A stretch of DNA of 64,000 nt from a virus, in the IMG/VR virus record IMGVR_UViG_3300045988_125846, positions 64,001-128,000 of that record; one strand, 5' to 3'. The notes beneath the pieces are model-generated. The model ran no database searches and was not told where the DNA came from. It worked only from the letters and a program-made list of their open reading frames with translations. Position 1 is the stretch's first letter, and every line of letters begins with the position of its first letter. Position numbers and translations under genes: made by a program. Shown here one piece after another: positions 1,749-46,458 of this stretch.

Positions 1749-4349
1749 TTACTTATTCTCTCTTTTCTTCTCAATAATCTTTCTAATAAGATCAATTGGA
1801 ATAACCATAAAGGCTAAAATTACAACTACTACCCAATGTTTGAAATCTAAAGCTGTGACCTTAATAAGATTTTCTGCAAAGTTGCAAAGAGCAAATGTCA
1901 TTGCAAAAATTCCGATTGCAATGGCTGAAAATAACTTATTCTTTCCAATGCCATTGAATAAATTAATATGCTCTGTACGAATATTAAATCCATTAAATAC
2001 TGCCATAAAGCATAACAATGCGAATCTCGCTGTCATAGCTTCTGTTTCAGATGCAAACATATTTGCAATTGGGCTAAATGTAATAATTCCATAGAGTACA
2101 ATAAATGCTACTGTACTAATCGCAATACGTTTCTTTGCTCCTCTAATGAATAAGCCAGAACCTTTCTTAATAGGTTTCTCTGTCATATACTCATCTTTTG
2201 GTGGTTCACCACCGAATGATAGTGAATTAAGGGAATCCATAATGATATTTACAATCAGAATCTGAACTGAAGCGAGTAATGCACCTGTTGCAATCATTGG
2301 ATAGATAACACTGAGAATCAGAAGTGAAATATTAATAGGTAACTGGAATTCAAGGAACATCATAATATTGTGCATAAATGTTCTTCCAAGTTCTACTGCC
2401 TTTACTACGCTTGCAAAATTATCATCTGTCAATACAATGTCTGAAGCTTCTTTTGCAACATCTGATCCACCTTGCATACCAAAACCAACATCAGCTCTCT
2501 TTAAAGCAGGACTATCATTTACTCCATCACCTGTCATTGCAACTGATTTTCCAATCTCTTGTGCTAATGTGACAAGTCTGAGTTTTGTGTTTGGTGAGCA
2601 TCTTGAAATAACTCTCAATCGAGGAATTATACTCTTTACTTCATCATCTGACATCGCTTCAAATTCATCATTTGTAAGTGCTAAATCTCCATCTTTGTAA
2701 ATTCCACACTCTGTAGCAACTGCAACTGCTGTCTCAATACAATCGCCTGTAATTTCAATAACTTGGATACCAGCCTTATGTGCTATTTTTACTGCACTCG
2801 GTACTTCATCTCTTACAGGATCTACAACACCGATAATTCCAAGGAATGTCATGTCATTTGGTATTTCATTCTCTACTAAATCACCATCTGCCATTGTAAC
2901 TGCAATACATCTCATCGCATTACTTGTCATCGCTGTAATTGCATTACTTAATGTATCATTGTCGTTATTCTCTACAATTTCACCACTTGAGTCCATTACT
3001 TTTGTACAATGCTCAATCAATTTCTCAGGTGCGCCCTTATAGTATGTAACTCCATCCTTTGTCGTAAAAGCTGAATACTTATTACTACTATTAAATACCT
3101 GCTTTAACTTAACTGGATATTTTTTCTGAATGTCAGCATGTGTTTCAGGATTTACAAGGCTAAGAACTGCTCTATCAATTGAATTACCACCTGTAATATT
3201 GTTTTCTGAATCAAATGTTGCACTATTATTTAAAGAAATGTTTGCCTCGATATTATTCCAAAGAACCGAATCCTTATTTACATCATTACCAAAGCCATCA
3301 ATAATCTTCTTTGGAGTCATAATACCTGTCGTAAGAGTACCTGTCTTATCAGTACAGATAATATCAACATATGCTAACTCTGGAATTTTACCAGGATTCT
3401 TAGCAAGAATATTGAATTTCTCCATTGTCTTTACATTCTGTTTTGTTACAAGTTTTACAATAAGAGGCAATCCTTCGGGAACAGCAGCTACAATAATTGT
3501 TAATGCTACTGAGAAGTTCTGTGCGATTTTCTGAATAATATTCAGAACGCCACCGCTAAAATATTCTCCAAATCCAACCTGTACAATTCCTGAAATTGTA
3601 AGCACCGCAAATGTAATAACGGCTGCGATTGTTCCCCACTTAGAAATGAAGTCGCTCAGATTATCAAGTGCAATATCAAGTGCTGTCTTTGGTGCTTCAA
3701 GTGTTTGCATTTTAACAAGCGTATCGCCATTTACTGTATTCACACCTACATCAGTAACAATCATTTTTCCTTCGCCTGACATTACTGTTGTGCCAGCAAA
3801 TAAGCAATTCTGATTCGTATAAGCATCTGTTGAAGTAGTTTTCTTATGAACGTATCCTTCAATTGGTGTTTTCTTACACTCTTTTGTTTCTCCATTAATA
3901 GCTGCATTGTTTACAGAAATCTTACCTTCAATGAGATATCCATCTGCAAAAATCTCTTGTCCCATTCCTACACAAACAAGATCACCAACTACCAATTCAT
4001 CCTTATTAATTGTTTGAACTTTGCCATCACGAATTACGTCACAATACCTGACTGATGTTTTGGCTCTCAACTCTGCTGCTGATTTTTGAACACCAAGTCC
4101 AGTCTTAACAGCAATACATGTTACAATTGCTAATACAACAAGAATCATAATTGGATCTGATAAATCCATTACTCCCATGACTCCAAGGAATAACTGCAAT
4201 ACTGCAATTGCAATAAGAATCATTGTGATTTTCTCACTTAATGCCTCCTTTGCGAAGTCATACCACTTGTCCAACTTTGGTTCAGGAAGCTTATTACTTC
4301 CATGAAGCTCTCTACTTTTGAGAACTTCTTTACTACTCAATCCATTCAT
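1749..4349 (-). CDS. P-type (P2, Ca2+-type) cation-transporting ATPase
   Basis: 866 aa with the ICTDKTGTLT phosphorylation site, the VPEGLP TM4 motif, the MTGDGVNDSPALKRADVGFGM hinge, a cation-ATPase N-terminus (LSSKEVLKSRELHGSNKLPEPK) and multiple TM helices. Confidence 0.9.
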   Translation of the reverse strand: MNGLSSKEVLKSRELHGSNKLPEPKLDKWYDFAKEALSEKITMILIAIAVLQLFLGVMGVMDLSDPIMILVVLAIVTCIAVKTGLGVQKSAAELRAKTSVRYCDVIRDGKVQTINKDELVVGDLVCVGMGQEIFADGYLIEGKISVNNAAINGETKECKKTPIEGYVHKKTTSTDAYTNQNCLFAGTTVMSGEGKMIVTDVGVNTVNGDTLVKMQTLEAPKTALDIALDNLSDFISKWGTIAAVITFAVLTISGIVQVGFGEYFSGGVLNIIQKIAQNFSVALTIIVAAVPEGLPLIVKLVTKQNVKTMEKFNILAKNPGKIPELAYVDIICTDKTGTLTTGIMTPKKIIDGFGNDVNKDSVLWNNIEANISLNNSATFDSENNITGGNSIDRAVLSLVNPETHADIQKKYPVKLKQVFNSSNKYSAFTTKDGVTYYKGAPEKLIEHCTKVMDSSGEIVENNDNDTLSNAITAMTSNAMRCIAVTMADGDLVENEIPNDMTFLGIIGVVDPVRDEVPSAVKIAHKAGIQVIEITGDCIETAVAVATECGIYKDGDLALTNDEFEAMSDDEVKSIIPRLRVISRCSPNTKLRLVTLAQEIGKSVAMTGDGVNDSPALKRADVGFGMQGGSDVAKEASDIVLTDDNFASVVKAVELGRTFMHNIMMFLEFQLPINISLLILSVIYPMIATGALLASVQILIVNIIMDSLNSLSFGGEPPKDEYMTEKPIKKGSGLFIRGAKKRIAISTVAFIVLYGIITFSPIANMFASETEAMTARFALLCFMAVFNGFNIRTEHINLFNGIGKNKLFSAIAIGIFAMTFALCNFAENLIKVTALDFKHWVVVVILAFMVIPIDLIRKIIEKKRENK

Positions 4350-30618: not shown

Positions 30619-31193
30619 AATGTTCTCTTTCTCCGACTTGACGCAATCGGTGCTATGTATTTTTATTGTGTACGTTGTTATCCTCAGCTTTTAACAGACT
30701 TGGAACTGTCAATCTTTGCAGACTGGTAGCTTTATAACGTCCTCCTCACCTTACCTAGTGCACCTCACACCGTTGTACTTTCGTACGCCCCTAAAGAGTA
30801 TTCATGCTTAGTCTTGAGCATTCATGACCTCTAACCCCTTTAGGATATAGATACAGACCTCAATATTCAATTCCTACGAGTTGGGGAACGTAGGCACTCT
30901 ATTTTCACCCCGAATTGCAATGCAAATAGTTAGAATACAAGCCGTAACTTATTTTCGTAGTGTGGTTTGTGCCGTAACACTTGCCACCTATCCGCAAAGG
31001 CATTTTTAAAGATATGCAAACTTTTTGTGGAATTTTTGCATGAAATATGCTAAGATATGTAATGCTATGGTGTAGCGTTTCATGCGTTCCACTATGTAAG
31101 GGTGTAAGGTGTGATAGACTTTGCACCCTATTTATAGGTTGCTACCCTATATATAAGCTATAAGTTTGAACATTTAAGTCAATCGCTTGACTT
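30619..31193 (-). ncRNA. long structured 5' leader or non-coding RNA
   Basis: No credible ORF and visibly higher GC than the flanks. It contains many helices; the individual helices and their coordinates are listed in the finding for 30619-31193. Confidence 0.4.
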
Positions 31194-36459: not shown

Positions 36460-36924
36460 ATGGCTGGTACAGTTGAAAAAGAAACCAATTTTTATCTATA
36501 TAAGATTATAGATAAAGACGAATTAGTGTATATTGGGAAGTCAACTAATATTGATAATAGAATTGAAGTTCATAGCGTTATAAATAATCATTTTGATAAA
36601 AACATGTATTTTACATGTAGAGGAGAAAGTATATCAAATTTAGTTATTTATATTGCCAACGTTCCTGACGAGTATCTTTTGTCAATATATGAAATAACAT
36701 TAATTTCAAAATATAAACCACTATATAATAACAGCGACAAGTATGATACAAAACATCTATTAAAGTTACCACAAATAAATTGGTTTCCATATGTATCAAA
36801 AGAAAATTGTGAAGTAATTTATAACATGAAAACAGGCAAGATTATTGATCCTTGTTTAATAGATACACCATTAAAAAGATGGAATATTTTAAAAGATTTA
36901 CATATGGAGGAAATTAAATGTTAG
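36460..36924 (+). CDS. GIY-YIG nuclease-domain protein
   Basis: FYLYKIIDKDELVYIGKSTNIDNRIEVH carries GIY-x10-YIG and the conserved R. Confidence 0.6.
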   Translation: MAGTVEKETNFYLYKIIDKDELVYIGKSTNIDNRIEVHSVINNHFDKNMYFTCRGESISNLVIYIANVPDEYLLSIYEITLISKYKPLYNNSDKYDTKHLLKLPQINWFPYVSKENCEVIYNMKTGKIIDPCLIDTPLKRWNILKDLHMEEIKC

Positions 36925-39686
36925 ATACACAGATTAATATGTATTCGGTTGATACAGGTCATTTTTATAGCAATCATGAAAAATACTTACATCAAATGAA
37001 CTGTAAATACAGACGTGAAAGAAATTATGTAAATAATATGCTTCCAAAATTAGAAGAAGAACTCGTAACGCAGGGTTACAACAAAGATGATTTTTCTGAT
37101 TGGAAACGTTGTACCGTTGAAGACTACTATGAACAAGAAAATGATTCTGTAAAAGAATATATGAAGTGGTGTTTGATTATAAAACACAAAAGAGAGAAAG
37201 CAAATTTATCAAAAGAAAAACTTCTGAATCTTTTATCAAATAAGACAATTCAAAAAGAGAATCTATCGAATAAAATCGAGTATTGCAAATCGCATAATAT
37301 TCCATATAATAAAAAAATCGAATTAAGAGAGTTAAGAAAAGATGAACTAAATGATAATAATATCATTTCAGTATTTGAATCTTCCCTTACACGTATTATT
37401 GGCATTAAAAAAGACGAACTAACAGACGCTCTTATTGTAGTTCAAGTTTATTATTTTGATGTATTTAAAGATTTGTCTTTTTATGGGTTTATGTATAATG
37501 GCGAAAAATACAGATACTTTACATCTTCTGCTGGTCAAATCCGTAAGAAAAAAGCTGTTTTTATTAAAGAATCAGTATGGAATGAAGTTGAAAAGACAGT
37601 CATGTGTGGTCTTACTATTGATAAAATAAACTCAAAGGGTGGAAACAATGTTAATAAACATCTTGCGTATATGGCATTGGCGAATTCAGCTACTGACCAG
37701 TGGAATGATTTTGATATAGACAGATGTATTGTTGTAGATGATTTTGAGACGAATGTGCCAGGAGAATTTGATTTTATTGATGAGACTGATTATTCGATTG
37801 AGAGAAAAACTGGTACTGTTCCGATTACTCATACTGATGGAGCTGGCATGATATTACCAAGCGTAATGACGAAAAACACAATGTTTCGTGCTCCATGGGT
37901 GAAAGGTTTATTGGGAGTATTTGATTTTAAAAAGTTTATTGAAGTAAATAATTGCTCTCCTATTATCACAGATATTTATGGGCAAGATCATGATGTAATT
38001 GCTGAAGATATTAGAATAATTTTCACAAAAAGTCAATTTAAGATGTATAAGTTTTATGATTCATGGGATGAGTATAAGACATATTTTAAGCAATATCATT
38101 GTCAAGCTGGTAGATGTAACACTGAGGAAGATAGAATTAAAAATGCAAAAATCAATTATCAGATGTTGCAAACTCTCACAAATGTAACAGATGAAGAGAT
38201 TGATTTACTTACAAAGAAGTCTGTGGAGCGAATCACAAATATCTGTAACTCTGTTGATACTATGAAAGATATTCTTGGAATTACACCTTATAATACAAAT
38301 ATGACAGCTTTTCAAAAAGCAGTAAAGATTTATCCTGCTCTACTCAACGATACATATGCAAAAGACGTGATCCGTGAAGTAAAGAATAGCCTTTTAAAAA
38401 AATATAGAAGTGGAAAACTTGAAATAAATGGAAAATATACTTTCTTACTTCCAGATTATTATGCAGCTTGTGAGTATTGGTTTGGACACATTGATACGCC
38501 TAAAGGATTGTTGGCAGACAAAGAGGTATTTTGTTGGTTATTTAAACAATATGATAAACTTGACTGTCTAAGAAGTCCTCACCTCTACAAAGAACATGCT
38601 ATTCGTTTTAATGTAGCGAATAAAGTATATGAGGAACGAGTTGATAAAATCAGAGAATGGTTTACAACAAATGCGGTATATACAAGTACATATGACTTGA
38701 TTAGTAAAATTCTTCAGTTTGATGTTGATGGAGATAAATCATTGGTAGTTGCTGATCCTGATTTTGTAAGAATCGCAGAACGTAATATGAATGGTGTTGT
38801 ACCACTCTATTATAATATGCGTAAAGCAGAGCCAAGAATTTTGAATAATCAAAGTATTTATGAAGGATTAAATGCGGCATTTACAGGTGGAAACATCGGT
38901 GTTTATAGCAACAATATTTCAAAAATCTGGAATAATGATGTATTTATCAATGGAACAGATGAGGAAAAAGAACATGCAACTAATTGTGTCAAGCGTTTAT
39001 GCTGTCAGAATAATTTTGTTATTGATTACGCTAAGACATTATACAAGCCTGAGTTTCCAGAAACAATTGGTGAAGAAATTAAAGAGTTTACCAATCAGAA
39101 ACTTCCTGCATTCTTTGAATACGCTAAAGACAAGGAAAAATCACAAGTTGATGATAGAAATGATAGTTTTGTAAATAAACTCTACTATCGTATTCCTAAT
39201 AAATCAATTAATACAAGAGGTATGAAACTTGGAGAATTAAAATATAAGGATATGATGAAAAATCCTGATATTGTATGTTCTAAAGAGGTATCTGATTTGT
39301 ATGATGAATTGAACAAGAAGTACCGCTATATGGTCAATATGAAGGATGAATATATTGATAATCTTCATTATGTGGCTTGCTCTATTAGAAATCAATTTGC
39401 AGAGCTTGGATATTCGGAAGAAATGATTGCTGATATGCTCATTCAATATTTATATGGTGGGGAAAAACGTGCGAAACAATTGTTTTGGTTTTGTTATGGT
39501 CAGTATATTGTTACTAATTTAGAGAATAATCCAAATATCAAAAAGAAAAAGACTAAAATGATTCAATGTATTGATTGTGGTAAATGGATTGAAGTTGATT
39601 TTATGTCCAAGTCATGTAGATGTGAACTTTGTCAGCATGAATATCGAAAACAGCTTGATCGAGAAAGAAAAAGAAAAAACAAGTAA
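36918..39686 (+). CDS. candidate single-subunit two-barrel RNA polymerase (YonO/QDE-1-like)
   Basis: 922 aa. LRSPHLYKEH (nt 38571) lies 50 aa upstream of QFDVDGDKSLVV (DVDGD at nt 38721-38735), matching the RxPxxH...DxDGD catalytic-barrel pattern. C-terminal zinc ribbon CIDCGK..CRCELC. An HU-like gene follows. Confidence 0.55.
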   Translation: MLDTQINMYSVDTGHFYSNHEKYLHQMNCKYRRERNYVNNMLPKLEEELVTQGYNKDDFSDWKRCTVEDYYEQENDSVKEYMKWCLIIKHKREKANLSKEKLLNLLSNKTIQKENLSNKIEYCKSHNIPYNKKIELRELRKDELNDNNIISVFESSLTRIIGIKKDELTDALIVVQVYYFDVFKDLSFYGFMYNGEKYRYFTSSAGQIRKKKAVFIKESVWNEVEKTVMCGLTIDKINSKGGNNVNKHLAYMALANSATDQWNDFDIDRCIVVDDFETNVPGEFDFIDETDYSIERKTGTVPITHTDGAGMILPSVMTKNTMFRAPWVKGLLGVFDFKKFIEVNNCSPIITDIYGQDHDVIAEDIRIIFTKSQFKMYKFYDSWDEYKTYFKQYHCQAGRCNTEEDRIKNAKINYQMLQTLTNVTDEEIDLLTKKSVERITNICNSVDTMKDILGITPYNTNMTAFQKAVKIYPALLNDTYAKDVIREVKNSLLKKYRSGKLEINGKYTFLLPDYYAACEYWFGHIDTPKGLLADKEVFCWLFKQYDKLDCLRSPHLYKEHAIRFNVANKVYEERVDKIREWFTTNAVYTSTYDLISKILQFDVDGDKSLVVADPDFVRIAERNMNGVVPLYYNMRKAEPRILNNQSIYEGLNAAFTGGNIGVYSNNISKIWNNDVFINGTDEEKEHATNCVKRLCCQNNFVIDYAKTLYKPEFPETIGEEIKEFTNQKLPAFFEYAKDKEKSQVDDRNDSFVNKLYYRIPNKSINTRGMKLGELKYKDMMKNPDIVCSKEVSDLYDELNKKYRYMVNMKDEYIDNLHYVACSIRNQFAELGYSEEMIADMLIQYLYGGEKRAKQLFWFCYGQYIVTNLENNPNIKKKKTKMIQCIDCGKWIEVDFMSKSCRCELCQHEYRKQLDRERKRKNK

Positions 39687-40184: not shown

Positions 40185-40590
40185 AACAATGAAATCAGCT
40201 TTTCTTGGCTGATAAAACAGAGAATATATAATTGTCGGAAGACATTAGAACAACGTCCTATACGGACGCAATATAACACAAATTAAATTCAGAACAGTGA
40301 TTTAGATCTCGTATCATACTGAGGCAATAAAGTCCATAGAGACAATGTATGTGGTGCAAGCAGCCATAACTGCTAACTTTAATGTTAGGTTGGTAAACCT
40401 ACGGATAATCAGCTTATTTGGTGAACTGATAAAATCTAAGAGATTCCATCGCTACTAATTCATTGGCGGTTCTGAACAATTCTAAAGATCATTTCTAAGA
40501 TTGGTACATATTCATATTGTACTCCTCTTCTTATATGTATCGGTGACTGTGCTACAATTCTTGCAGTATGGTTGCCGATTATTCTTTTAA

Positions 40591-40663
40591 TCTCTTATAG
40601 CTCAGTTGGTAGAGCATCGCACTGTTAATGCGAAAGTCGTAAGTTCGAGTCTTACTGGGAGAG
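40591..40663 (+). tRNA. tRNA-Asn (GTT)
   Basis: TCTCTTA-TA-GCTC/GAGC-TCGCA[CTGTTAA]TGCGA-AAGTC-GTAAG[TTCGAGT]CTTAC-TGGGAGA-G. Confidence 0.85.
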
Positions 40664-41497
40664 CTTTTCTACTTTTGTAGGACTGGTTGGTTTCGGATCA
40701 GGAGATGTTAAATCTCAAAAATAAGCATGGCGACATGTATAAAGTGGTTCTTATCGTATTATAAGGCTGCGACTGTGAAATACAGTTTAACGGAAAACAC
40801 ATAAAATCTACGCCCAACCTTCTATTCAAGGACAACTGTTGGCGAATATGGTTGATTGGTGGGTGTCTTGAAATAGGCACTGTAGTAACACAGAAATGTG
40901 GGTATGATTTGTGTACTATTGGTGGGAATACCGCAAGTATAACCGCTGGTAGGATTTTGGTAATATCTCTTAAGTTGAAAAACAGGGATGGAATCAAAAG
41001 GCAAGGAGATCGCAATTCGAGCAGGATGGTGATGATTGGGCTGTACTCAAAAGGTACGGATGATCAAATGTACACCTCATCGTCCATAATAAGTACATGC
41101 TTTTGAAAGAAATCAAATTATTTTAGGTAAATAATATTTAAAAGAAAATTACAAAACAGCAAAAGTGTGTGCGACCGCAAAGAGAAAAACAACTTATTCA
41201 CCTGTAATATGGTGACATATAGCACTCGCAAGGTGTTATATGAGAAAGTACAAGTACGTGCAATTCTAATAGGCTGCAACCTATGAATCTCGCAAGGAAG
41301 AATGTGCCGAAAGAAAATCTATAATACTTTGTGGTAAGAGTTTGCCGGTTATGTCAAAACTGGTGTTGTTGCTAACTACAAGTTAATCGCTTGTGTGATA
41401 AACTGTGTCCAACCACAGTAGATGTTAGTGTATTGAGTCAAATATCTCAGCTCATATTAAGTAATGATCTCATACTTCGGTATGGGATTTTTTATTT
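40664..41497 (+). ncRNA. candidate large structured non-coding RNA(s) between tRNA-Asn and tRNA-Lys
   Basis: About 830 nt with no credible ORF and visibly higher GC than the flanks. Repeated CGCAAG-type and GAAA-capped hairpins; their coordinates are listed in the finding for 40664-41497. Ends in a UUCG-capped terminator. Confidence 0.45.
41469..41494 (+). terminator. intrinsic terminator
   Basis: CTCATAC-TTCG-GTATGGG followed by ATTTTTT. Confidence 0.65.
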
Positions 41498-41498
41498 A

Positions 41499-41573
41499 GA
41501 GTGTGTAGCTCAGTTTGGCAGAGCACTCGACTTTTAATCGAGTTGTCGATGGGTTCAAATCCCTCCACGCTCA
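41499..41573 (+). tRNA. tRNA-Lys (TTT)
   Basis: GAGTGTG-TA-GCTC/GAGC-CTCGA[CTTTTAA]TCGAG-..GGG[TTCAAAT]CCC..-CACGCTC-A. Confidence 0.85.
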
Positions 41574-41827
41574 CTCTCTTCTGCTATTCGGCAGGAAATA
41601 AATCAAGAAAGAAGTGAAAATTATTTTATTAATTAACAAAACAGAAGCCTTTGCAATGAGGAAACTTGTTGGAAATGAGAATGTAAAAAAGACTTATAGT
41701 GGTCATTCTAAATACTATCTGGTTGAGTCTTATCAGAATTTAAAGGCTTTAAGTAATTATAGAAAAAGTAAAATCGTTGGATAGAGACGAAATCTAAAAT
41801 GAAAGGTGGTCGGAAACCATCGGTACA

Positions 41828-43057
41828 ATGAAATTTTATGATACTAATGCTATTTTAAAACTACAGGACAAAATTTTTGAGGAAGATTTTATCATAAGTT
41901 CTGTAACATTACAAGAATTAGAGCATATTAAAGTATCTCGAAACAAAGATGATCATGTAAAGTATGAAGCACGAAAAGTTTTGCACCTACTTGATGATAA
42001 TTCGGATAAATATGAAGTTGTTGTATATGACAACGCAATTGAAAATTACATACTTGAGAAAAATATGGAAATAACACCTGATACTAAAATAGTTGGTAGT
42101 TGTGCATTTGTAAATACAATGAAGGATGTTATTTTTATTACAGATGATATTGCTTGTAAAATGATTGCAAGTAAGATATTTAATCTTACTGTAAAAGGTG
42201 TAAATGATGAGCCAGTAGATGATTATAGTGGATTTATTGAGAAGACACTTTCAGAGTCAGAAATGGCTTATTTTTATGAACATTTGCAGGAAAATACCTA
42301 TGGATTACTTGAAAATGAGTATCTTATCTTAAAAGATTCTAATACTCATGCCGTTGATACTCTCGTTTGGCGAGAAGGAATGTACCAAAATATTAAATTC
42401 CCTAATATTAAATCAGATTATTTTGGCGTAGTTAAACCTCTTAATGGAGATATTTATCAGCAAATGGCTTTAAATAGTTTCTCTAATAATCAAATTACTA
42501 TGATTAAAGGTTCTGCTGGTACAGGAAAATCATATCTTGCGGTTGGATATATGATGTGGTTACTCGAAAAACACAAGATTGATAAAATTGTGATTTTTGC
42601 CAACCCAACTCCTACTATGAATTCGGCTAAGATTGGATTTCTGCCAGGAACACAGCTAGATAAGCTCGTTGATTCAAGTATTGGTAATATGCTTGCTGGA
42701 AAACTTGGAGACAAGTTTATGATTGAACAGCTTGTGTCAAGAAACAAGCTTTCTATATTACCGATGTGTGATATTCGAGGATTTGATACAAGTGGTTTAA
42801 ATTGTGCGGTCTATATTACAGAGGCGCAGAATTTAGATATATCACTCATGAAACTTGCATTACAGAGAATTGGAGAAGATTCAATCTGTATTATAGATGG
42901 CGACTATAACACTCAGGTCGATCTCAATCAATATGCAGGCAATAATAATGGTATGAGAAGAATGTCTGAGGTATTCAGAGGACATGATTTCTATGGAGAA
43001 ATTGAATTACAGAACATCTACAGAAGTAAGATTGCTGCTGTAGCTGATGACATGTAA
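41828..43057 (+). CDS. phoH: PhoH-like ATPase with an N-terminal PIN-like domain
   Basis: 409 aa. N-terminal FYDTNAIL..ITDD (PIN-like). Walker A is IKGSAGTGKSYLAVG, followed by the conserved PhoH C-terminal region (FLPG..K..P). Confidence 0.8.
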   Translation: MKFYDTNAILKLQDKIFEEDFIISSVTLQELEHIKVSRNKDDHVKYEARKVLHLLDDNSDKYEVVVYDNAIENYILEKNMEITPDTKIVGSCAFVNTMKDVIFITDDIACKMIASKIFNLTVKGVNDEPVDDYSGFIEKTLSESEMAYFYEHLQENTYGLLENEYLILKDSNTHAVDTLVWREGMYQNIKFPNIKSDYFGVVKPLNGDIYQQMALNSFSNNQITMIKGSAGTGKSYLAVGYMMWLLEKHKIDKIVIFANPTPTMNSAKIGFLPGTQLDKLVDSSIGNMLAGKLGDKFMIEQLVSRNKLSILPMCDIRGFDTSGLNCAVYITEAQNLDISLMKLALQRIGEDSICIIDGDYNTQVDLNQYAGNNNGMRRMSEVFRGHDFYGEIELQNIYRSKIAAVADDM

Positions 43058-46209: not shown

Positions 46210-46293
46210 GGGTAATTAAACAACTACGGAGATTGGCGAAACTGTAAATTTCGTGGCTTTTGCATCGAGTGGGTTCGACTCCCTCATTACCCA
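46210..46293 (+). tRNA. tRNA-Tyr (GTA), class II with a long variable arm
   Basis: GGGTAAT..CGAAA[CTGTAAA]TTTCG-long arm-GGG[TTCGACT]CCC..ATTACCC-A. The D-arm is AT-rich and weak. Confidence 0.7.
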
Positions 46294-46458
46294 CTTTTGA
46301 TGTTTCTGTGAATGGAAACAGGGAATAGATATATGTGCTCATGATTAGTGTCATAGCTGATTGTGGGATTTATGATGAATATATAAAAATGCGACAAGAA
46401 GCGGTTAGTTAATGATACTACTGCTTCTTTTTTGTTATATGAAAGGAAGTGAGATTTA

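Follow-up and report, generated by a model that had tools for sequence, protein, structure and literature searches.

GOLLD RNAs are among the largest non-coding RNAs of bacteria and phages. The reference cited for GOLLD RNA is Weinberg et al. 2009. GOLLD self-assembles into hollow, homo-oligomeric, RNA-only cages of 10 to 14 subunits and is found next to or within transfer RNA (tRNA) clusters in phages and prophages (PMC12286853, PMC12990946). Structures have been obtained by cryo-electron microscopy for the env-38 14-mer (PDB 9MEE) and the S. agalactiae 12-mer (PDB 9L0R) (PMC12286853, PMC12990946), and the GOLLD RNA of an L. brevis prophage accumulates in lytic growth (PMC12286853). The DNA analyzed here, referred to as the window, is a viral stretch of 64,000 nucleotides (nt) corresponding to positions 64,001 to 128,000 of IMG/VR record IMGVR_UViG_3300045988_125846, and coordinates are counted from its first letter. 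An island of 833 nt that is poor in open reading frames (ORFs), located at 40665-41497 on the + strand between genes for tRNA-Asn and tRNA-Lys, had been proposed from the letters alone to encode a phage-encoded giant structured RNA, either of the ROOL or GOLLD kind or of a new class. The analysis described below identifies 40665-41497, with high confidence, as one GOLLD-class RNA of about 830 nt that belongs to a divergent subfamily from large temperate phages with gut Bacillota of the Lachnospiraceae type as hosts.

The Infernal search recommended in the original prediction was run against Rfam and yielded a match to the GOLLD model (RF02032) at 41024-41453 (+), which covered model positions 1-416 of 416 at 100.1 bits, with E=8.1e-27 in a local search and E=4.3e-25 across the whole 64-kb window. 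No match to ROOL (RF03087), raiA, OLE, HEARO, or group I/II introns was obtained at E<=10 in the interval 40500-41700, and the ROOL model returned nothing at E<=0.01 across the whole window; of the two named families, GOLLD was therefore retained and ROOL dropped. In the model alignment every GOLLD element is present and in order, including three stem-loops at the 3' end of the 3' domain. The Rfam gathering score for RF02032 is 150 bits, which is a curated annotation cut-off and no structural feature. Because the score obtained here lies below this cut-off, default Rfam annotation is without GOLLD at this locus; a scan at gathering thresholds reported tRNAs only, and the GOLLD match appears in E-value mode only. 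Homologs in the same subfamily score 77.5-97.5 bits, and an alternative allele found in the same slot of related phages scores 159.2 and 171.2 bits, so the window RNA was filed as a divergent, not a routine, member. A blastn comparison of the island with GenBank phages matched the flanking tRNAs alone.

Relatives were retrieved via the PhoH-like gene located at 41828-43057, which gave 37 IMG/VR phage contigs, mostly of 80-180 kb (loci are designated here by L numbers). In 15 of the 37 the island has a homolog of full or nearly full length, ranging from 99.8% down to 73% identity, and these 15 loci were aligned using MAFFT (alignment A1, 944 columns, 73-99.8% identity). The consensus fold predicted by RNAalifold on A1 contains 196 pairs, and 98.6% of the pair cells are paired, compared with 32-44% in slid controls, in which the 3' partners were moved by 1-3 columns. 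Compensatory pairs, in which both sides have changed, number 67 over the whole island versus 5-10 in the slid controls, and none of 500 shuffles reached the observed pairing values. Both halves covary: the 5' half (40683-41018) contains helices 2-16, and helices 17-32 belong to the 3' half. Many invariant G-U pairs, which would be A-C mismatches on the opposite strand, fit the + strand only, and the RNA was assigned to the + strand for this reason. As an independent test, the cmscan alignment was used to project the Rfam consensus pairing onto A1, giving 92 pairs in 14 helices. The projected helices are 93.4% paired in the 15 homologs versus 32-45% when slid, 24 of the 92 pairs are compensatory versus 0-3, and again 0 of 500 shuffles reach these values. 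Twelve of the 14 projected helices are paired at 83-100%, 11 of them with compensatory changes. The covariation in homologs that the original prediction had asked for was thus found with both the RNAalifold fold and the externally defined helices. As a single sequence, the island has a minimum free energy (MFE) z-score of -5.49 relative to dinucleotide shuffles.

The features of the locus are listed below by position.
40591-40664, + strand: tRNA-Asn(gtt), called by ARAGORN and matched by the Rfam tRNA model at 70.3 bits, directly 5' of the GOLLD RNA.
40667-40682, + strand: tRNA-trailer hairpin UUCUAC-UUUU-GUAGGA in the MFE fold, with the compensatory variant CCCAU/GUGGG in L008.
40683-41023, + strand: GOLLD 5' domain of about 340 nt and about 14 helices, from RNAalifold on the 15 homologs.
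40714-40792, + strand: 5' entry module, consisting of AAUAA, a GCGA hairpin (40726-40737), AUAAAG, a stem GUGG...CUGC (40744-40770), CG, and a hairpin (40771-40787).
41024-41453, + strand: GOLLD 3' domain, the family-defining part, matching RF02032 1-416/416 at 100.1 bits.
41024-41086, + strand: first hairpin of the 3' domain, with a UCAAAAG loop, at RF02032 model positions 1-63.
41087-41160, + strand: AT-rich variable internal linker, at unpaired RF02032 positions 64-130 with a 14-nt insertion.
41174-41335, + strand: multi-helix core, closed by a 9-bp helix of ACCGCAAAG (41174-41182) with CUUUGUGGU (41327-41335).
41269-41284, + strand: hairpin with a CUGCAA loop, within the core.
41466-41497, + strand: intrinsic-terminator-like hairpin and U-run from a terminator scan, with a 10-bp UUCG-capped stem (41466-41489) followed by a T-run.
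41499-41574, + strand: tRNA-Lys(ttt), called by ARAGORN and matched by the Rfam tRNA model at 59.8 bits, directly 3' of the GOLLD RNA.

Most of what had been read from the letters stands, including the bracketing by the two tRNA genes on the + strand and the UUCG-capped terminator ahead of tRNA-Lys. The U-run of the latter ends 1 nt 5' of tRNA-Lys, and its stem (helix 33) covaries in L013 and L033. The reported increase in G+C content is real but modest, at 0.369 for the island compared with 0.31-0.32 for the flanks and 0.326 for the whole window. Hairpins with GNRA caps are abundant, and the motif positions are all confirmed, with CTCGCAAGG at 41225 and 41289, CCGCAAG at 40931, CACA-GAAA-TGTG at 40889-40900, and CCGCAAAG at 41175. 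The last of these had been described as a hairpin; it has no hairpin loop and is instead the 5' strand of the covarying 9-bp long-range helix formed by 41174-41182 with 41327-41335.

The AT-rich stretch had earlier been considered a place where the island may split, and a reading as two separate RNAs divided at 41101-41160 can draw on its G+C content (0.19 over 41087-41160) and on its variation in both length and sequence among the homologs (A1 columns 489-600). Against such a division, the stretch lies inside the Rfam 3'-domain model, where it aligns to an unpaired linker, and neither a terminator-like nor a promoter-like site was found in it on the + strand. A linker of this type is also known in GOLLD, being disordered and pointing into the cage in env-38 and containing a tRNA in some GOLLDs (PMC12286853). 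Among the loci fetched for this study a tRNA is located inside the linker in phiCbK and Cp1R7A-A1, and ARAGORN reported none inside 41087-41160. A pair of separate RNAs is very unlikely on this evidence, and the AT-rich stretch is the variable internal linker of GOLLD, with no boundary between two RNAs.

In the GOLLD alignment the linker is followed, ahead of the core-closing helix, by a conserved AGCAAAAGU strand. The core-closing helix is 100% paired in the 15 homologs, with compensatory changes in 3 of its 9 pairs, and the core hairpins carry two CUCGCAAGG motifs (41225 and 41289). The GC dinucleotide of the loop at 41274-41279 is invariant among the 84 unique family members listed. In env-38, the GC dinucleotide of L21a forms a symmetric inter-chain kissing contact (PMC12286853); invariance of the equivalent dinucleotide among the 84 variants listed is consistent with such a contact, without proving it. 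Kissing between the CUCGCAAGG loop and the conserved strand ahead of the core helix, where UGCGA at 41170-41174 could pair with UCGCA, was considered and is not supported: many homologs have UAUGA in this strand, and the loop is invariant.

RF02032 models the 3' domain only, and the 5' half of the island (359 nt) was characterized by the family fold and by comparison with other GOLLD loci. Among helices 2-16, most have compensatory changes and all are 91-100% paired, except for a helix of two pairs at 80%; the domain contains hairpins with GCGA, GAAA, and GCAA-containing loops and a long-range helix of 40799-40808 with 40906-40914. In env-38 the 5' domain comprises residues 1-420 of 833 nt, is less conserved, and forms the cage cap (PMC12286853). 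The env-38 sequence was taken from Suppl. Table 4 of PMC12286853 and eight GenBank phage GOLLD loci from its Supplementary File 3. By eye, the entry module follows the order R-AUAA, GNRA-type hairpin, AAAG, stem-loop, CG, and hairpin, and this order is common to env-38, Acinetobacter phage P577, Mesorhizobium phage Cp1R7A-A1, Vibrio phages, L006/L007, and the window; the GUGG...CUGC stem-loop occurs in env-38, DSS3P8, and the window. A covariance model of 79 positions, R1, was built from the window's family only. When the search was restricted to the region 5' of the 3' domain, R1 matched L007 at 10.7 bits (E=0.028), P577 at 12.0 bits (E=0.011), and Cp1R7A-A1 at 16.2 bits (E=0.0023), these E-values being rough; the top matches were in the expected place, on the right strand, and over the full model, with next-best matches at E>1. 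That this 5' domain is homologous to those of other GOLLDs is likely but not settled. Two further approaches were discarded: a hand-written descriptor of the entry module was too loose, matching a tRNA and two unrelated window sites and missing env-38, and aligning the entry modules of seven known GOLLDs with MAFFT gave a result too poor for a leave-window-out model. Within the subfamily, L003 has a 39-nt tandem duplication at about 2990-3030 (A1 columns 201-253) that repeats two hairpins, and in L020 and L012 a segment of about 50 nt (A1 columns 150-253) is replaced and expanded. The 5' domain tolerates modular changes.

Several observations weigh against placing the island in the GOLLD class. 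The score of 100.1 bits is under the cut-off of 150 bits, one hairpin is shorter by 9 model positions, projected Rfam helices 6 and 9 are weak (60% and 72% paired), and one weak Rfam helix is better replaced, in the family fold, by the pairing of 41248-41252 with 41303-41307. Profiles of the 5' and 3' halves compared by nhmmer with env-38 and L006/L007 gave nothing above shuffled decoys, the 3' domain included; since this same domain was matched by the covariance model and missed by nhmmer, sequence-only searches are uninformative here. Homology of the 5' domain is argued from weak R1 matches (10.7-16.2 bits, rough E-values) and inspection by eye, and an R1 search of whole loci was not significant, L006 being reported at E=1.8 beside a false match of similar score. 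That the RNA forms a cage and is co-transcribed with the tRNAs is inferred. The sub-threshold score, the absence of nhmmer similarity to env-38 or L007, and the two weak helices could be taken as signs of a large structured RNA of a new class, whose likeness to GOLLD would be due to chance or convergence, but all 416 model positions are matched at E=4.3e-25, the 12 well-paired external helices (11 with compensatory changes) were defined independently of this family, an above-threshold GOLLD allele occupies the same slot in near-identical phages, and the linker position, tRNA context, and 5' entry module are as in known GOLLDs. A new class is very unlikely, and that part of the original prediction is not supported. 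The island is a new member of the known GOLLD class, in a sub-threshold subfamily from a new host lineage.

The slot occupied by this RNA has different contents among the relatives. L006 and L007 are near-identical phages (PhoH 97% identical) that have a different GOLLD allele in the same slot, at 3156-3630 in L006 (159.2 bits) and 3153-3627 in L007 (171.2 bits), both above the gathering score. By blastn this allele is unalignable to the window RNA except for the last 56 nt, terminator included. In L007, 98.5% of the 400-nt upstream leader is common with the window, and because this leader is located upstream of the tRNA, the exchanged unit is taken to be a tRNA-plus-GOLLD cassette. The slot is without GOLLD in L011 and L024, which have an ORF and an AT-rich spacer, and also in L014-L016. 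In L021 (3087-3928) and L022 (3240-3850), whose PhoH is 65% identical, an array of 6-9 tRNA genes replaces GOLLD; one tRNA of the L021/L022 array has a predicted four-base anticodon, gtta.

Subfamily members were sought in IMG/VR with a signature of 31 specified bases and were found in at least 115 contigs, including at least 84 unique full-length variants. A pattern of 15 specified bases was used on a genome collection, and almost all of the 120 stretches it returned were chance matches; L134 alone was real. This locus is from Eubacterium segne BX4, a cultured gut isolate (NZ_JACOOZ010000003.1, 128001-136000, in a 340-kb contig), in which a related phage region has the order tRNA, GOLLD (around 128.3-129.2 kb), tRNA-Asn, small ORF, and PhoH. 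The E. segne BX4 copy has 74% nucleotide identity to the island and scores 97.5 bits, and the adjacent PhoH has 48% amino acid identity, so the GOLLD RNA is better conserved than its protein-coding neighbor. The examined part of the published GOLLD alignment contains no Eubacterium, Lachnospiraceae, or Clostridia entries.

These comparisons also bear on whether the island could be a functionless structured leader, a spacer, or the degenerated remnant of a tRNA array, as might be supposed from its position between tRNAs and from the tRNA arrays (L021/L022) or AT-rich spacer (L011/L024) found in the same slot of relatives. That idea is scarcely credible in light of the lack of tRNA-like matches within the island (ARAGORN, Rfam), the 67 compensatory pairs over 830 nt, which indicate selection on an elaborate fold, and the stronger conservation of the island than of PhoH in the E. 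segne relative. Least probable of all, with a chance close to nil, is a decayed protein-coding gene or small-protein locus: the only longer ORFs are 40698-41015 (-; 105 amino acids) and 40852-41106 (+; 84 amino acids), no Pfam family matches either of them, their stop-free frames are displaced or lost in diverged homologs, and substitutions are concentrated in compensatory base-pair changes, in agreement with the initial judgment that no credible ORF is present.

With the island taken as a GOLLD RNA, its borders were compared among relatives. The hairpin at 40667-40682 is probably the boundary of a tRNA cassette and not part of GOLLD proper, because the same hairpin type follows the downstream tRNA in relatives. 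Hairpins of the CCTAC-TTTG-TAGG type occur after both the upstream and the downstream tRNA at many loci (window 40667-40682 and 41581-41597; L005-L036), and AAATAAAT comes next after the hairpin 3' of the downstream tRNA (window 41581-41597; L005-L036). The trailer hairpin may be a tRNA-trailer processing signal or a recombination joint of cassettes. Among the very similar phages L001-L036, the tRNA after the GOLLD terminator (at about 3675-3750) varies between Lys(ttt), Ile(tat), Pro(tgg), and Thr(tgt). These are different tRNA bodies, and the Ile and Pro genes share the T-arm and the 3' half of the acceptor, which suggests recombination within tRNA genes. On the 5' side of GOLLD, tRNA-like genes uncalled by ARAGORN are located at about 2672-2760 in L007, at about 2766-2842 in L023, L008, and L036, and at 275-345 in L134. 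They resemble tRNAs in the T-arm GGTTCGA.TCC and the acceptor ends; Rfam reports the genes of L036 (39.2 bits) and L134 (42.6 bits) and none in L007, in which the anticodon loop is oversized.

From the gene layout, the RNA would be transcribed from the + strand jointly with tRNA-Asn. Its 5' end would be freed by 3' processing of tRNA-Asn, and either the terminator hairpin or cleavage by RNase P at tRNA-Lys would determine its 3' end. With tRNA-Asn ending 1-2 nt before the trailer hairpin and the U-run 1 nt 5' of tRNA-Lys, both ends could be defined by tRNA processing enzymes. By homology to env-38 and S. agalactiae, the RNA probably forms a homo-oligomeric nanocage, which would be assembled via loop-loop and A-minor contacts into a closed shell with the linker facing the interior. 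The recurring linkage to tRNA genes points to a role of GOLLD that is connected with tRNA or translation while the phage grows. A further proposal is that GOLLD is an interchangeable cassette at a tRNA-flanked hot-spot that may hold either of two GOLLD alleles, tRNA arrays, or nothing, is bounded by tRNAs with a common trailer hairpin, and serves as a tRNA-related accessory module; this is offered as speculation and is thought improbable. If the interchangeability is functional, the cage might store or shield phage tRNAs or act as a decoy for host anticodon nucleases, and could be tradeable against extra tRNA genes. The cassette idea would be testable with natural variants that have or lack GOLLD in an otherwise near-identical backbone, together with the cultured relative E. 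segne BX4.

The window is a section of a large phage genome. It encodes a PhoH-like ATPase, a ClpP-like protease, an integrase, a homing endonuclease, a terminase large subunit, and a portal protein, and contains 10 tRNAs according to ARAGORN. No phage portal in GenBank reaches 30% identity to that of the window, and the nearest relatives infect Bacillota. A gene for a YonO-like single-subunit RNA polymerase is located at 36918-39686 (+), with about 0.9 kb between it and the tRNA-GOLLD unit on its 3' side; the 922-amino acid product has 44% identity to SPbeta YonO and 42.5% to a homolog of Psychrobacillus phage Perkons that is annotated there as an RNA-dependent RNA polymerase. The leader at 40185-40590, 5' of tRNA-Asn, is 406 nt, ORF-free, and 95-100% conserved in several relatives, including a phage with the other allele; no Rfam match was found within it. 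Its fold has a z-score of -2.46 and includes a hairpin of 15 bp (about 40541-40581). Overlapping with this hairpin is a candidate extended -10 element, TGCTACAAT (40550-40558), which is 33 nt upstream of tRNA-Asn and was read by eye, the promoter scan not having listed it. At 30677-30738 (-), the model of the type-P1 twister ribozyme (RF03160) is matched over its full length, although below threshold, with 48.3 bits (gathering score 67.2) and E=1.1e-7 for the whole window. This segment, which has the conserved UAA...GC...CCAAG...AAA.GC.GAGG positions, may be a self-cleaving ribozyme in the leftward gene block. A tRNA-Tyr(gta) at 46210-46294 (+) is called by ARAGORN, and the Rfam tRNA model reports none there at E<=0.01.

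The locus changes nothing in what is known of the GOLLD class itself. It does extend the class to Lachnospiraceae-type hosts, with a prophage-like copy in a cultured isolate, and it brings to light a whole subfamily (at least 115 IMG/VR contigs), abundant in large human-gut-type Bacillota phages, that lies under the Rfam threshold and is unannotated. The divergent allele, the canonical allele, and the absence of GOLLD form a natural allelic series in almost identical backbones, which is usable for comparative or genetic tests of function.

Of the described systems, ROOL (RF03087) resembles the window RNA in being large, ornate, phage- or prophage-associated, and tRNA-proximal, and it likewise forms RNA-only cages (PMC12286853); it differs in secondary structure, and its model gave no match at E<=10. 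The canonical-type allele of L006/L007 differs from the window RNA in scoring 159-171 bits, above the threshold, in being unalignable save for the last 56 nt, and in having a different, atypical tRNA-like gene upstream, whereas the slot, the leader (98.5% in L007), the terminator, the downstream genes, and the domain plan are the same. Compared with GOLLD in general, the window RNA scores 50 bits under the gathering cut-off, has one shortened hairpin and two consensus helices that are weak or re-paired, is AT-rich (36% GC), and comes from a gut Lachnospiraceae-type Bacillota host lineage that is absent from the examined part of the published alignment; its 5' domain is about 340-360 nt versus 420 nt in env-38. 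In other respects it matches the class, with the full 3'-domain model, the same helix order, covariation, the linker after the first 3' hairpin, and a structured 5' domain, several hundred nt long, whose entry module has by eye the same order. The overall length is about 830 nt compared with 833 nt for env-38, and P21a-like and P21b-like hairpins are present in both. The known GOLLD loci fetched here have the same tRNA-GOLLD-tRNA context, and in Mycobacterium phage PegLeg and Acinetobacter phage P577 the upstream gene is tRNA-Asn, as in the window.

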